A stretch of DNA of 64,000 bases from Thermovirgaceae bacterium (GCA_040767805.1 JAXGNU010000004.1:1-64000), one strand, 5' to 3'. Shown: positions 1 through 6,000, counted from the stretch's first letter. Numbers are program-made.

Positions 1-3000
1 ACTTATTGTTTGACCAACACAGGAAATAGTTGTAGAATTGCTTTTTAATATGACATGCATTGGCTGGCAGGGTGATAAATGCCAGGTCAAGTTCGGCTAT
101 TTCCTTAAAAGATACCCGCCGTAAGGAAGGGGAAACGTGAAGGACAGCAGGCATGGTAAGGACTTGCCCGACTCCAGAGGGCCTGTCACCCTAGGGATCA
201 GCAGGAAGGAGCCGGATGAACCAAACAGGTCATTCCAGGCAAGCGTAACCAATCGTGGGGCGTCTCGAACCAGGGCTCCTAAAACAATACAGGGCGGAGC
301 AACTGCGGTATGGTTGACGAACGTCGCATGCGAGGTCTCCCTGGAAACGAATCAAAAGGGGCGTTGCAGATCCAGGACAGCATAAAGGGGTGTCTTGTCT
401 TTTCCCAGGACAGCGGGCCCGAAAACGGCGACAGCCTATTGCCGGAAGATGTTCAACCACTCATCTTCAGGCTCAATGCCGTGTGCCCTTATTACACGAT
501 GTTCCCACTGGACTTTCCGCTGCAATGCCTAGACAAGGCCGGCAAAAACGACTGGGTCCTTGATCCTTTCTGCGGCCGTGGGACAACGCTATTCGCCGCC
601 CGCCTCCTAGGCCTCGGCTGTGTGGGCATCGATAGTAACCCTATCGCGGCAGCGGTAGCAGCGGCAAAATTGGTGCATACTACGCCTAATGCCGTTGTTG
701 AAAGAGCGAGATCGATCCTGTCAGAGGCATCCGAACCGCTTTCCACCCCCTCCGGTGACTTCTGGGAGCTTTGCTACCACCCCGAAACATTGAGAGAGAT
801 ATGCGTTCTTCGATCCGGACTGATAAAATCCTGTGAGACTGCGGAAGATGTCATGCTCCGCGCGTTGTTGTTGGGGATCCTCCACGGGCCTCGCCAACGC
901 GGGTCGCCGACTTACCTTTCAAACCAAATGCCCCGCACCTACGCGACAAAACCTAGTGCCGCGGTTCGCTACTGGAAGCGCACCGATAATACGGCGCCGC
1001 CACGGGTTAACGTTCTGGACGCGGTAAAACGACGGGCGGGATATTCACTGCGAAAGCTCCCACCTCCTTCCGAAGGGGCCGTCTACTTCGGTGACGCGCG
1101 GGGCTCCGAAGGAATGGTCCCGCCATCCTATAGATTTAACTGGGTCGTGACATCCCCCCCTTATTTCGGCATGCGCACCTACCGCCCTGATCAGTGGCTC
1201 CGCAACTGGTTCCTGGGTGGCGCTGAAAGTGTTGATTATTCTCAGGAAGGCCAGATACCCCATTCTTCTTACAAGTATGCCGAGGGCTTGTCCAAAGTAT
1301 GGAGATCCATTGCAAAGCGGTGCTCTCCCGGCGCCCGCCTTATCATCCGCTACGGCTACCTACCAAGCGTTCCTGTGGATGCCCGAGAAACGCTACGGGC
1401 TTCTTTGAAACTGGCTGGCTCAGGGTGGCGGATCCGGCGATGGGTCGAGGCGGGATCGGCGAATAACGGCAAGAGACAGTCTGAACAGTTTGGCCGCGTT
1501 ATCCGAACGGCGGCGAGCGAGGTGGATGTCTATGCCAGGCTTGAAGTGTGATCATGTTTAATCCTGACGAACTCCCCGCTTTAAAACAAGCTATCCGTCA
1601 AGCGACCGTCCGTGATCGAAGGTTACTCGATGATCTTCGTTCGGAAGTCCGCGCCCTTGCCGGTGAGGTCAGGGCGATCAACCCTAGGACAACAGCTTCG
1701 GTATCTCTTGTAGCCAGCGACGGCGGGAACAATAAGCTTGTCTTTGACCCATTCCACGTCCAACTGGTACGGGTCGTGGATTCGTACGGAGAGCAACTCT
1801 GCCTTGACGCGGTGACACCGACGACAGACACCGACGAACTGAGTCGCGCCCAGTTCAACGGCGACGGGTCTCCTAGAACTCCTATGGGCCGTCTTATGGC
1901 GGATCTGAATGTTGGCACCTTGAACGACCTTAGCCCCATGATCCCAAGCGGAAGGAAAACGCGAGAGTCCCCCGATGAGGTGTCTCCTACATGGGTCCTT
2001 GTCTATCGTGATCTATGCGAGTGGGCCGCGCTTTATGAACGTATCTGTTACCGTAATTTTGCCACTGACACGCTGCTGGTCAGGGATGGCCTGCTTCGCA
2101 GCAAACTGTTTCAGGGAGAACTCTTCATCCAGTTCAGGAAACGGATAGAAAAGGCCATTGAGAGGATCAGGGAGGAAAATCAACGAAAGGTATACCTCGC
2201 GGGCATCGCGAAGCATAGCAAGGTTTTAGCTCGCTACAACCTAGCCATGGCCCTTGAAGAGACCTTTAAACAGGGATCGCCCCGTTATGTAAGAGTGCCG
2301 AGGGAACTGGAAGCCAAGGCCTATGTTTGGCCCGAGTATGCCCGTGGGTCTGAAGTGGAAGGGGGCGGCGGAGAAGCCCCCAAGTTCGTCGCCGGGGACA
2401 TGTTCCTTGTGCGTTTCGGAGGGCGAAAGGGCGATCCGGTTTGGACGGTCGATATTTTGAGCAGTCAGTCCAAGCAGGCGGCGGAGGTATTCGGATACCT
2501 GCTGTCCGACGCCATCTACGGATTCCCCGTCCCCTTTTACCCGCGTTGTTTACAAAAAGCCCATGAATTTGCAGAGATAGTGGACTTCGATCTCACTATT
2601 CTTCAAGATGAGGTGCTTTCGGCCGTCCGCGGCTTGCTGGAAGAAAAAGAGATCTCCGGATTGGAGGCCTTGCGTCTTCAAAGCGATGTGTCGACAAGGA
2701 GGTACGAATGAAACTCTTTTCACGCGAAACGACGGTTGGGATATTCAGAGGTTTTAGTGAAGGCGGGCTGGAGTTTCACGCAGATATCGTGCTTCCCTAC
2801 AAGAATGAGTTTCAGCGTGCTCCGATGCATGGACAATTCCTCATTGTTCAACTGGAAGACGAGAATGAAGCGGTCCTCGGCCGAATAACCTCGATATCAT
2901 CCCAAGGGCGCCTTGCTTCTTCAGCGGGCGAGGATTACGGCATCCGGGCGGTCTCAGAAGAGCGGCCGATCCCCGAAGACCTCCGGGAACAGTACCTCAA

Positions 3001-6000
3001 GTACCTGGTGAAAATGCGAGTCCTGGGCGTGGTTCGTGTTGTCAACGGTGATCTCGTCTTTGCGGCCTCCCATCGCCGCCTGCCGCACGTCGGAAGTAAG
3101 GTGGCCTTTCTGACCGACGATATCTTACGTGAAGTAGCCGGGCACAACATTGAAGACGCGGCCGAAATAGGACATTTCGCACTCGGGGAATTCATCTTCG
3201 CTTCCGGCGACGACCGCCTGGTCCAGGCCCCTTGGATGCAGATAAAAAGCCCACTGGTGATCCCCAAATTCCACGTCCTCGACCTCGTCGCCAGGCGCAC
3301 CCTTGTCTTCGCGAGGGCGGGTTTCGGAAAATCAAACCTTGTAAAACTCTTATTCGCCAACCTCTATCACGATACCCCGACGGTGGAAAAGCGTGGCGGG
3401 AAGCAAGTACCGGTAGGGACCGTTATCTTTGATCCCGACGGCGAGTACTTTTGGCCCGATGATAAAAACCGGCCCGGCCTGTGCGACGTGCCGGAATTGC
3501 AGGACAAAGTTGTTGTTTTTACACCGAAGGAAGGTCCCAGCCCTTTTTACCAGTCCTTCGTAGCCGGGGATATTCGGCTTGATATTCGTCGGTTGCGTCC
3601 GAGCGACGTCATTTCGATCGCCCTGTCACCGGAGAAGCAAGATCAGCAGAACGTCAGAAAGTTGAAAAGCATGAACGATGCCGACTGGCACCAACTCGTC
3701 GACCTGATCCACCGGGACGGGAACGCCGCCGACGGACAAACCGTCAAGGAGCTCCTCAGGCTCGAAGACGGTCAAGATGCCGAAATGGTGGCGGCGAGAG
3801 CCAACATGACCATCGTCGTCAAAATGCTGCACGACCCCAGCAGCCAAATGATGGACATGCTTATCGCAGCTCTCCGAGAGGGCAGAATATGCATTGTCGA
3901 CGTGTCCCAGATGCGGGGTACGCCGGCCCTTGTTCTTTCCGGACTTATCCTGCGACGGATATTCGATCACAACCAGGAAGAATTCACAAAAGCACAGCCT
4001 GAGACCATCCCAGTCATTGCAGTCGTGGAAGAAGCCCAGGCGGTCCTCGGCAGCACGGGGAGTTCCGGAGAAGGACCCTACGTTACCTGGGTCAAGGAAG
4101 GCCGGAAATATGACCTGGGAGCCGTCCTGATCACCCAGCAACCGGGATCGATATCGAGTGAAATCTTGAGCCAGGGCGATAACTGGTTCGCCTTCCATCT
4201 GCTGTCGGCCGGCGATTTAAGAGCCGTTAAGAGCGCCAACGCTCACTTCAGCGATGATATTTTGTCATCCCTCCTGAACGAACCGATCCCCGGCCATGGT
4301 GTTTTTTGGAGCAGCGTCGGCGGGAAGAGTTACCCCATTCCGATACGAGTTCTGTCTTTTGAAGGTCGGTACAAAGCTCATGATCCGCAGTATAACAAGC
4401 CCAAAGCAGACACGGCCGCCGCGAAACTCCATCATCGGTTCAGTGACGCCTTGGACGCCGCGCAACGTTCGGTCACGGCTGATGCCACTCAACCTCCTAC
4501 CCATACTGCTGTGTCCGGAACAGCCTTCGATGAACCTGAAGCAGATGAAAAACAGGACACCCTGGCCACCTACGAGAAGGCCTCTATTGAGGCATTCAAA
4601 AAGAACCGGATTTTTCTTAACCGACTGGAGAAGTATGGCGTTCCTTGGAGAGGTGTCCAGGAAGAATTAAAAAAATCCCTACCGGATGTTCTGTCGGATC
4701 GGGATAATATCGCTTACCACCTAGTCCCAAAAGCAATGACGGCGGTGTTCGGTGAGCAAGAAAAGAGTTGGAAGACGGAGAAGAGACCCCGAAAGAGTGG
4801 GTCAGGGTACACCACTTGGATCGTTATAATCGGCGAAAACGACAAAGGTAATAAATAGAACGTGAGGCCACTCTTGATGAAACGGCTATGCAACGATCTT
4901 CACCGCGTTTCACGGTGCTCCATTAAGCATGTGGGACGACCGAATTAAAAACCGCTAAGGAGGAGGCAATGGCAAAAAAATGGATCCATAGAGACCTTAC
5001 TACCGAGGTTAAAGACATCCTGACCCATGCGGAGGCATATCACGCGTACTATTATGAATCAGAAAGGTTTACTGGCCCGTCTTTACATTTTCACTGCCGT
5101 GCAATTGAGGTCCAGCAATCAAACTGGCTGGATGCCCTGGAACTGGCCTATGCAGCGCTGGCATCGTGGGGAATGCACCGCATGGGAACGACCGGTTCAA
5201 AGATGCAATCTTATGAAAAATTTAACAGCACTATCCGTTCCGTCCAAGAGGAAATTGAGAAACTACGACAGAAGGCACCTCACGAATTGACACCATCCGA
5301 TTGGTCCAGTCTGGAAAAAGTCTTCAAAACCATCGATGTAATGGAAAGCGGCACCAAACTTATCGGCAATTCAAAGGCCATGGCGCACATCCTCCCTCGT
5401 CTGGTAGCACCGATTGATAGAGAATATACTCTCAATTACTTGTTTGGGAATAATATGTTCCAAAACAACCTTGAACAAGAGTGGGGTTTAATGCATAAGA
5501 TCCTGTCGGATTTCTATTACCCGGTTGCATCGGATGGATCTTTCCAGCGACTGACCAAAAGATGGATGGCTGATAAAAATTGCCCCTGGGACACTTCGGT
5601 CCTGAAAATAATTGACAACTTAGTGATCGGCGCGGAAAGAACTCATAGGGATGGTGTTCGGTAAAAAAGTAATTTCCACTGATCGCGAGAGGCTCTGTCA
5701 GAACATCGAGGCGCGGAGATCATCGAACGTGCGAAGGAACCAGCGAAGGACCAGGCGCTAGGACAAGTTGTCATCCATTTGCGACAAACTCACAACAGGA
5801 CTTGCGACAACCCTACAGGCCCCACGGACGGTAAATGAGCAAAAGTCATCCATAGAGAATTGGTCGCAGGCAGGAGGAAACCTCGAACCAGTAAAACCCA
5901 GGGATGACCCAAGTGGGGGCGCAGCATGGCAGAAGCACGAAAAAATCGAAAACAGCTCCTGCAGGCCGTGGGAGTGTCTTATGCAGATTGATCGAGCCCA

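Follow-up and report, generated by a model that had tools for sequence, protein, structure and literature searches.

A methyltransferase-linked NurA/HerA gene cassette with similarity to the Tdp restriction machinery: a candidate restriction-modification-like defence module

Three adjacent genes at positions 310-4858 of the window (the whole 64,000-nt stretch of Thermovirgaceae bacterium DNA analysed here; GCA_040767805.1, JAXGNU010000004.1:1-64000) encode a methylase, a predicted NurA-type nuclease and a HerA-type motor. On balance, we lean towards reading this cassette as a mobile, three-gene, restriction-modification (R-M)-like defence module, in which methylation would act as the self mark for a Tdp-type engine. 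All three open reading frames lie on the + strand: the DNA methyltransferase at 310-1551 (413 aa), the NurA/TdpB-like nuclease at 1548-2711 (387 aa if read from the GTG at 1548) and the HerA/TdpA-like ATPase-translocase at 2708-4858 (716 aa). Homologs of the 387-aa product begin at its residue 3, and the true nuclease start is probably the ATG at 1554, giving 385 aa and separating it by 2 nt from the methylase stop codon (1549-1551). The genome-wide survey's note had described three overlapping genes; this holds for the nuclease/ATPase junction, where an ATGA at 2708-2711 creates the only certain overlap (4 nt), and probably not for the methylase/nuclease junction. Ahead of the methylase gene, in its A+T-rich leader, the candidate promoter TTGACC-17-TAGAAT (10-38, +) agrees with the consensus at 10 of 12 positions and provides weak evidence of a promoter-like site, three such sites occurring in 6.3 kb versus 3.2 expected from shuffled sequences.

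The first gene product, probably an N4-cytosine or N6-adenine enzyme, scores 43.1 bits against the Pfam N6_N4_Mtase model (PF01555; cut-off 26.7) and 67.0 bits against PADLOC MTase_II, its PDB matches are exclusively methyltransferases, and one UniRef name starts with "site-specific DNA-methyltransferase (c". Both signatures of N6/N4 DNA methyltransferases, the AdoMet motif I (DPFCGRGT, aa 85-92, nt 562-585, +) and a catalytic motif IV of the (S/D/N)PP(Y/F) type (TSPPY, aa 281-285, nt 1150-1164, +), are present and unchanged in all 25 homologs aligned, with motif I ahead of motif IV, a permuted order relative to the Pfam N6_N4 model. Across these 25 homologs the protein is conserved over its full length save for some 50 N-terminal residues. 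No hypervariable target-recognition region is seen among them, a feature that we count against the R-M-like reading. Relatives sharing 40-48% identity adjoin other helicase or nuclease genes in phage and prophage contigs, and the methylase may hence constitute a portable modification module, a point that we count in favour of the preferred explanation.

The middle gene had been reported to lack any family match, and in Pfam and NCBIfam nothing better than E 0.08 is indeed obtained, while PADLOC yields nothing; the Pfam NurA model (PF09376) gives no match at E ≤ 0.1, the sole match being a chance-level His_Phos_1 (0.081). The statement does not extend to UniRef, where one homolog (P0102, from Calderihabitans maritimus) bears the name "NurA domain-containing protein". 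Structure and profile comparison support the identification of this protein as a NurA/TdpB-type nuclease with a predicted RNase H-like fold. Its AlphaFold model (pLDDT 93.2, 84.7 in the earlier work) is best matched in Foldseek by TdpB (8wfd_G, E 1.7e-12, TM 0.62/0.66, 20-21% identity; formerly 1.7e-11 and 0.61/0.65), followed by NurA structures (2ygk at 1e-5, 9x1l_G, 3taz, 7f6d_G) and then by Argonaute PIWI and EndoV. A 44-homolog profile matches TdpB (8wet_G) at 4.5e-14, strengthening the 6e-6 first obtained, and Sulfolobus NurA (2ygk) at 0.16, the DGG motif of the nuclease aligning opposite the VAIDGGS motif of the latter. The putative catalytic residues D58 (nt 1719-1721), E158 (nt 2019-2021), D180 (nt 2085-2087) and H339 (nt 2562-2564), all on the + strand, correspond to what we take to be the catalytic residues of NurA and are retained throughout the 29 rows of the methylase clade, such that the acidic/histidine set expected of the fold appears intact. 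The family comprises 412 representatives at E ≤ 1e-3, against 510 in the earlier count.

The third gene product is supported, by sequence comparison, as a HerA/TdpA-like hexameric translocase, with TdpA as its nearest relative among solved proteins. It matches Pfam DUF87 (PF01935) above the cut-off (72 bits, 1.1e-19) and the PADLOC models HerA (69.3 bits) and mad8 (41.7 bits), and carries a Walker A (ARAGFGKSN, aa 202-210, nt 3311-3337, +) and a Walker B motif (AVVEEAQ, aa 438-444, nt 4019-4039, +), both unchanged in all 24 homologs aligned. These features place it among the HerA/FtsK ATPases, with a HAS-barrel at aa 38-109 that is weak and falls under the Pfam cut-off (16 bits, E 0.014). The scores first given for N6_N4_Mtase, DUF87, MTase_II and HerA were all recovered, as was the best phmmer match in the PDB, TdpA (8wet_A, 1.1e-18, in two stretches), after which come Sulfolobus HerA (1.4e-12) and defence HerAs. 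A middle stretch of 150 aa is left unaligned to TdpA by phmmer, and the last aligned position pairs residue 555 of the ATPase with residue 581 of the 586 in TdpA. Beyond a variable linker (about aa 580-615, +), the structure model predicts a C-terminal winged-helix-like domain (4550-4840, +, about aa 615-711; mean pLDDT 82, core above 90) that is without counterpart in TdpA on this alignment. The structures that match it best are winged helices without exception, at middling scores (RFX5, Z 6.4; Cdt1 C-terminal domain, Z 6.2), and a Foldseek search with the domain returned nothing at E ≤ 1e-3.

TdpABC was reportedly described by An et al. (Nat Chem Biol 2025), with structures 8wet, 8wfd and 8y1k. 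Its HerA-type ATPase and NurA-type nuclease are the nearest solved relatives of the two adjoining cassette proteins, and in both systems a DNA-modifying enzyme brings the total to three genes. The third gene of the cassette, however, encodes an AdoMet-dependent base methyltransferase rather than TdpC, and an N6_N4 methyltransferase is the sole conserved third gene among the 34 loci analysed; within its own genome (80.6% complete), a PAPS-reductase-type PP-loop gene (PF01507) is absent, no TdpC sequence having been compared. Further differences from Tdp lie in the low identity of the nuclease to TdpB, in the additional winged helix and middle stretch of the ATPase, and in hosts that are mostly not known thermophiles. 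TdpABC, the phosphorothioate-based R-M system of thermophiles, is cited or discussed in three further articles (PMC12914056, PMC12345140, PMC13223576), one of which states that the system is of phosphorothioate-based R-M type and that its modification is made by tdpC alone (PMC12914056). A reasonable analogy would put the methyltransferase in the place of TdpC.

The distribution of the cassette supports its inheritance as a unit, its horizontal spread and its setting in defence islands. A search of one genome each of 185,579 species returned 33 loci, which together with the window make up the set of 34; they span at least 16 phylum labels, with nuclease identities of 42-83% and identities between phyla of up to 88%. 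The ATPase lies downstream of the nuclease in all 33 loci with room for it, and the methylase neighbours the pair in 29 of the 32 loci that could be assessed, upstream in 25 and downstream in 4, so that two regularities first recorded in metagenomes (57 of 57 and 26 of 30, respectively) recur in this independent set. Over 18 loci, methylase divergence correlates with that of the nuclease (r 0.75) and of the ATPase (r 0.83), values not reached in any of 2000 permutations. There is no fourth conserved gene, any other family being limited to 3 loci or fewer among the 34. As a raw count taken without a control set, 24 of the 106 genes that flank the cassettes most closely match PADLOC models at E ≤ 1e-10; these 24 are spread over 16 of 32 loci, and the models include Type I, II and III R-M, SIR2-HerA, HEC-05 and capP; in the window, the AbiE pair noted beside the cassette was found again with both Pfam and PADLOC (AbiEii, 6294-7316, -; AbiEi, 7259-8065, -).

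Such a distribution bears directly on whether the cassette could be a housekeeping end-resection or repair machine like the archaeal and Deinococcus NurA-HerA (2ygk, 3tai, 9x1l, 7f6d), with the methylase as an unrelated bystander. The likeness is real, in that both have a NurA fold of RNase H-like type, a D-E-D-H set and a HerA gene directly downstream, and the bacterial Deinococcus NurA-HerA (7f6d_G) is itself among the structural matches; yet the TM score to these proteins is just 0.33-0.41, and the missing Pfam NurA match sets the nuclease further apart. Moreover, a housekeeping function sits poorly with so sparse and patchy an occurrence, with a methylase that co-diverges with the pair, with the absence of linked Mre11/Rad50 among the 34 loci, with the defence-island setting and with the finding of degraded copies in 5 of 34 loci. 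The cassette in the window, single-copy in a 1.65-Mb genome, located at the end of a contig and lower in G+C, argues the same way, and we deem this explanation very improbable.

The frequent decay of copies can also be taken as a mark of a selfish addiction or maintenance module, acting through post-segregational killing or the processing of element DNA, for which phage defence would be incidental. High-identity spread between phyla is in keeping with that explanation, as are a G+C usually unlike that of the flanks (lower in 19 of 24 loci), copies on IMG/VR contigs, and a type V-K Tn7-like TnsB/TnsC pair beside the cassette in one locus (L023). Nevertheless, the 34 loci show no recurrent association of the cassette with integrase, transposase or replication genes, its neighbours are mostly other defence systems, and classical R-M systems are equally selfish and yet defend, which leads us to regard a purely selfish role as quite unlikely. 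The cassette behaves, in these comparisons, like a mobile defence module.

The same evidence distinguishes it from other defence systems. With SIR2-HerA (Nezha) and DUF4297-HerA (Hailibu), jointly Gao_Her, it shares a HerA hexamer as effector platform or motor, and its ATPase matches defence HerAs at 1e-5 to 1e-10 as well as the PADLOC HerA models; the effector, however, is of NurA type, the gene beside HerA showing no SIR2 or DUF4297 match in Pfam or PADLOC and folding like NurA/TdpB, and a modification enzyme is present. In one locus (L002), that of Methylacidiphilum fumariolicum SolV, a true SIR2-HerA pair lies directly beside the cassette, indicating two separate systems. Classical Type II and III R-M systems likewise feature neighbouring, co-inherited methylase and nuclease genes that are horizontally mobile and found in defence islands. 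Their specificities diversify, whereas the cassette methylase shows no variable target-recognition region among its 25 homologs; the cassette nuclease is predicted to belong to an ATP-driven, processive NurA-HerA engine, and some pairs lack a methylase altogether.

Three of the 32 assessable loci (L023, L025, L032) carry a full-length nuclease and ATPase with all catalytic residues intact, no methylase remnant within 10 kb, and, elsewhere in their genomes, either no methylase homolog (G001) or only relatives at 29-34% identity that lie far from the pair (G002, G003); in the tree, L025 is the sister of a methylase-bearing locus. An unguarded restriction nuclease is expected to be lethal. There are therefore three possibilities: the pair does no harm to a circular chromosome, it is inactive without the methylase, or the host is protected by other methylases. 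A simple self-protection model does not predict such pairs, and a strict R-M model, which has the nuclease always accompanied by its protective methylase, is strained by them. They can be accommodated as harmless remnants if the methylase were instead a DNA-recognition subunit required by the nuclease-motor, as in Type I and III R-M or BREX, which, on binding to unmethylated sites, would license NurA-HerA or load it, the pair being inert alone. The tight spacing of the genes (the 2-nt gap and the 4-nt overlap), the strong co-divergence, and the full-length conservation of a methylase with no separate specificity subunit are all compatible with a recognition role. The placement of the methylase on either side of the pair is less so, and its association with unrelated helicase and nuclease modules better fits a free-standing modifier; fused forms, in what was a weak search, were not found. 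We consider a recognition subunit unlikely, and retain the R-M-like module as the preferred reading.

Locus comparison shows that the methylase is not the only third partner and that at least one alternative exists. In a larger sister clade, the same nuclease-motor pair is accompanied by DruA (DUF4338) in 61 of 61 assessable loci, the DruA proteins being full-length (Pfam 1e-66 to 1e-97; PADLOC DruA, 604 bits). The ATPase C-terminus could not be aligned with the last 130 aa of 42 ATPases from this clade (hhalign probability 1%). A parallel is offered by Druantia, of which type I has DruA and type II a methylase. Apart from the shared DruA, the sister clade differs from Druantia type I (DruA-E) in having no DruB, C, D or DruE helicase, the NurA-like nuclease and HerA being the only conserved partners of DruA; the window contains no DruA, and a weak search of its genome for DruA gave no match, the control genomes giving none either. 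Assignment of the cassette to Druantia type I is thus not upheld. The survey's proposal of a restriction-like module related to Tdp is sustained and strengthened as regards folds, homology, trio linkage and defence setting; it is modified by the existence of an alternative third partner and by the methylase-less pairs.

In the R-M-like model, the methyltransferase would mark host DNA, probably at N4-cytosine or N6-adenine, and the NurA-like nuclease would sit on the HerA-like hexameric motor as TdpB does on TdpA, a complex that we infer by homology to TdpAB. The motor would thread double-stranded DNA with ATP hydrolysis and feed the nuclease, so that unmarked phage or plasmid DNA would be processively degraded, while the methyl mark would spare self DNA, the role held in Tdp by the phosphorothioate made by TdpC. 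DNA degradation, protective methylation and anti-phage function would follow from this analogy. The mark may stall the motor-nuclease as in Tdp; sensing of a base methyl by the pore is not obvious, in contrast with phosphorothioate, because the HerA pore contacts the DNA backbone. Alternatively, the mark could be read by the methylase or by the clade-specific winged-helix tail of the ATPase. Extending the analogy, the TdpAB-type NurA/HerA pair might be a portable restriction engine served by at least three interchangeable self-marking enzymes (TdpC, the methyltransferase and DruA/DUF4338), a suggestion we offer tentatively and with more doubt than conviction. DUF4338 has been termed a GNAT-fold domain (PMC10853773); on that basis, DruA would be an enzyme that marks DNA, possibly by acylating it, or a comparable discriminator of self from non-self.

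No published description of the cassette was found in the open-access text searched. The larger DruA-linked sister clade, the occurrence of the methylase family beside other modules in prophage contigs and the three methylase-less pairs are additions of the present analysis. If the R-M-like reading is correct, the Tdp machinery would not be an oddity of thermophiles tied to phosphorothioate, but one member of a widespread class of ATP-driven NurA-HerA restriction engines reading different DNA marks, here in a system that escapes the 2023 PADLOC set for lack of a model of its nuclease. The DruA-linked clade provides a simple three-gene setting for learning the role of DruA and, if the engine is truly portable, would give a first functional handle on the DruA of Druantia type I, while the methylase-less pairs pose sharply the question of how the engine avoids killing its host. 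The cassette is carried by the isolates Methylacidiphilum fumariolicum SolV and Thermovorax subterraneus and, judging by protein name, by Desulfatirhabdium butyrativorans and Calderihabitans maritimus.

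The methylase, nuclease and HerA-type ATPase genes of the cassette (310–4858) are a unit. When 185,579 species were scanned, each represented by a single genome, 33 loci emerged at 42–83% nuclease identity under at least 16 phylum labels; Methylacidiphilum fumariolicum SolV (L002) and Thermovorax subterraneus DSM 21563 (L026) are isolates among their hosts, and the window brings the set to 34. A HerA gene, intact or degraded, lies directly 3' of the nuclease gene in all 33 loci with room for one (L019 is cut). The methylase lies upstream in 25 loci, counting a degraded copy and a remnant on the edge of a contig, and downstream in four, one of them degraded; it is absent from three loci with 10 kb present on each side (L023, L025, L032), and its presence is not assessable in two (L028, L029). 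No further conserved gene family occurs in more than three of the 34 loci. Across the 18 loci in which all three genes were aligned, pairwise identities between methylases correlate with nuclease identities (r 0.75) and ATPase identities (r 0.83), values reached in 0 of 2000 permutations. Decay is evident in five of the 34 copies, through an insertion of about 2.6 kb with three ORFs that divides the HerA gene (L016:12132-14766), a frameshift (L028), a deletion joining nuclease to ATPase (L031) or multiple breaks (L030, L033). Cassette G+C ranges from 0.40 to 0.64; in 19 of 24 loci it is lower than the G+C of the flanking DNA.

In the window, where the contig end coincides with the window start, the methylase ORF begins 309 nt further in (310–1551, forward strand, 413 aa) and matches Pfam N6_N4_Mtase (43 bits, above the cut-off) and PADLOC MTase_II (67 bits). 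The ATPase ORF (2708–4858, forward strand, 716 aa) matches Pfam DUF87 (1.1e-19), PADLOC HerA (69.3 bits) and the NCBIfam 'anti-phage-associated helicase HerA' (8.8e-17, at a score far under the curated cut-off). The middle ORF (1548–2711, forward strand, 387 aa from a GTG at 1548) has no family match across Pfam, NCBIfam and PADLOC (best E 0.08). Junction sequences show the nuclease and ATPase genes sharing an ATGA at 2708–2711, and the nuclease probably starts at the ATG at 1554, two bases past the methylase stop, rather than at the GTG, because its homologs begin at the third residue of the ORF. The G+C of the cassette is 0.551, against 0.614 for the remainder of the window.

Several lines of evidence point to the middle protein as a NurA/TdpB-type nuclease. 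As a single query against the PDB it returned chance-level matches only (TraJ, 0.074; BRG1, 0.74), and a profile of 44 full-length relatives of at least 27% identity matched TdpB (8wet_G, 4.5e-14) and, at 0.16, Sulfolobus NurA. The AlphaFold model built from the same 44-relative alignment (pLDDT 93.2, pTM 0.90) has TdpB as its top Foldseek match (8wfd_G, E 1.7e-12, TM 0.62/0.66, 20% identity), followed by the NurA proteins of Sulfolobus, Thermococcus, Pyrococcus and Deinococcus and then by Argonaute PIWI and endonuclease V, a ranking that sets the predicted fold in the RNase H-like surroundings where a NurA protein belongs. All 29 methylase-clade sequences examined retain residues D58, E158, D180 and H339, as do all 58 from a sister clade (position 180 being D or E), and the profile alignment sets the DGG motif of the nuclease against that of Sulfolobus NurA; we take these to be the catalytic positions of NurA. 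One homolog bears the UniRef name 'NurA domain-containing protein'. Among 7999 candidates scored, 2795 are relatives at E<=1e-3, and the family comprises 412 representatives at 50% clustering. PADLOC-DB 2.0.0 has no model for it, and a search for fused or longer forms found none, which is weak evidence.

The nearest solved relative of the ATPase is TdpA (1.1e-18), followed by Sulfolobus HerA (1.4e-12) and the HerA proteins of known defence systems, and its Walker A (ARAGFGKSN) and Walker B (AVVEEAQ) motifs are invariant across 24 homologs. The TdpA alignment stops five residues short of the TdpA C-terminus, and the window's ATPase ends, behind a variable linker, in a conserved domain, some 100 residues long, for which TdpA has no room. 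This domain is confidently modeled as three to four helices and a beta-hairpin. Its structural matches are winged helices only (RFX5, Z 6.4; Cdt1, Z 6.2), with middling scores (Z 5–6.4, VIA) of a level called common, and Foldseek returned no match for it at E<=1e-3.

A metagenome search with four distant nuclease relatives returned 329 relatives, and the best 80 of these loci (L043–L122) carry a nuclease 35–38% and an ATPase 45–48% identical to those of the window, together with a different third gene, which is likewise conserved and encodes about 405 aa. This gene was identified as Pfam DruA/DUF4338 in five of five members tested (1e-66 to 1e-97), with PADLOC DruA scores of up to 604 bits. 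It is present in 61 of the best 80 loci, upstream in 33 and downstream in 28 and always on the same strand, as at L080:1035-4702 and L047:448-4872; the remaining 19 are cut by contig ends, and DruA is found at every locus that has room to either side (61 of 61 assessable among the best 80). A relative of the window's methylase occurs in none of the best 80. Maximum-likelihood analysis of 109 nuclease sequences by a quick search, with truncated and degraded genes left out, resolves two clades with SH-aLRT support of 100 each; the root of the tree is arbitrary, several representative rows are long-branched and a careful search was left unfinished. All methylase-linked and methylase-less loci fall in one clade, where the 22 rows with an upstream methylase group together (support 97), and all DruA-linked loci fall in the other. 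The C-terminal tails of the ATPases of the two clades are unalignable (hhalign probability 1% over the last 130 residues), and the ATPase tail therefore varies with the partner gene. In the DruA-linked loci, PADLOC would see just an isolated DruA and HerA. The window's own genome (80.6% complete) gave no match in searches for PAPS-reductase-type PP-loop genes (PF01507) or for DruA (PF14236), control genomes for the latter being likewise silent. DUF4338 is described as a GNAT acetyltransferase domain (PMC10853773).

The most economical reading of the cassette is a restriction-modification-like system, in which the methylase would mark self DNA and the NurA-HerA engine would degrade unmarked DNA. 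This reading parallels the Tdp system, in which phosphorothioate reportedly blocks TdpAB translocation and cleavage. The phosphorothioate mark is made there by tdpC alone (PMC12914056). We regard the cassette as a probable restriction engine of the Tdp type whose mark would be base methylation; more boldly, the NurA-HerA engine may be a general module that accepts different marking enzymes in turn, including DruA. The open-access text searched, together with passages of PMC13748450, PMC12977600, PMC10853773, PMC12839542, PMC12948488, PMC13223576 and bioRxiv 10.1101/2025.07.10.664194, describes no NurA-HerA system linked to a methylase or to DruA. A role for the cassette in repair is unlikely, because its spread is patchy, its copies decay, its nuclease and ATPase co-diverge with the methylase and its neighbors argue otherwise.

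The restriction-modification reading is strained by the three intact nuclease-ATPase pairs that retain all catalytic residues and lack a methylase, one of which is sister to a methylase-bearing locus in the tree. These pairs may be recent methylase losses, or another methylase may protect their hosts. Two further possibilities concern the engine itself, which may require DNA ends and hence spare the circular chromosome, or may be inactive without the methylase, as in Type I and Type III systems or BREX, the methylase then being a subunit that the otherwise inert nuclease-motor pair requires.

The methylase has motif I (DPFCGRGT) preceding motif IV (TSPPY), both invariant in 25 homologs, and is conserved throughout except for some 50 N-terminal residues; the same alignment contains no hypervariable target-recognition stretch. 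N4-cytosine is hinted at as the target, but not established, by the SPPY motif, weak PDB matches to N4-cytosine methylases and a truncated UniRef name, and no paper on a Methylacidiphilum methylome was found in open-access text. In IMG/VR contigs the methylase family occurs in 21 loci and the nuclease in just five, and 16 methylase loci have neither nuclease nor ATPase. An ORF of about 1415 aa adjoins the methylase in nine of the 11 nuclease-less loci examined, and the three such ORFs tested are SF1 helicases with DpdJ/MkoA-like PADLOC matches. The methylase relatives beside this helicase are 40–48% identical (L139–L144, L146, L147, L137, L130), in the two loci tested (L140 and L146) a neighboring protein of about 500–560 aa carries a TnsA-like endonuclease domain, and the group adjoins phage tail genes; it may be a further, prophage-borne defence module linked to a methylase. 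In two further viral loci (L132:4794-8350 and L134:4102-7628) genes for an NsnA-like DUF262 (GmrSD_N) protein and a HEPN protein come after a member of the methylase family, an assignment made with Pfam and PADLOC on L132 alone. With such varied helicase and nuclease neighbors, the methylase therefore behaves as a portable modification module, paired with differing nuclease/motor modules. Matches to MADS (mad8, 41.7 bits) and to Hma (HmaB, 26 bits, for a viral methylase relative) were rejected as generic P-loop or methylase similarity. On two viral contigs (L124:4658-5242 and L125:2945-3529) a nuclease match lies directly 3' of an intact methylase and ends at residue 193.

Among the 106 nearest flanking genes of 32 loci (up to two per side), 24, in 16 loci, match PADLOC at E<=1e-10; this set has no control, and enrichment is thus an impression rather than a statistic. 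The matches include Type I, II and III restriction-modification, a SIR2-HerA pair, HEC-05/GmrSD, PD-Lambda-2, capP and PDC candidates, and some are generic (cyclase, TnpB/Cas12f-like, Tn7 TnsB/C). The SIR2-HerA pair stands immediately next to the cassette of M. fumariolicum SolV (L002:7347-10999). The cassettes of this locus and of L003, the two most closely related to that of the window, each directly adjoin a gene for a 249-aa HNH endonuclease (L002:2034-2783, L003:9207-9956), which is upstream in one case and downstream in the other; a search of the window's own genome found no homolog. In an uncultured Microcoleus (L023:10001-16745), TnsB and TnsC genes that score 807 and 336 bits against type V-K CRISPR-associated transposon models lie about 1 kb from the methylase-less pair, which may be transposon cargo. 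In the window, an AbiEii toxin/AbiEi antitoxin pair (6294–8065, reverse strand; PADLOC 368 and 396 bits; ORFs overlapping by 58 nt) forms with the cassette a small island of lower G+C (0.54–0.55, against 0.614 for the rest) at the contig end. A 231-aa gene (4969–5664, forward strand) begins 110 nt 3' of the ATPase gene behind a strong ribosome-binding site (AGGAGGAGG) and is unrelated to the cassette; its product is unmatched in Pfam, NCBIfam and PADLOC, and the gene is not a conserved neighbor of the cassette in other loci. In the protein atlas it falls near DUF6308-containing clusters (feature score 0.97, the family being found on just 10–21% of members), and the local G+C, about 0.47, is the lowest of the region.
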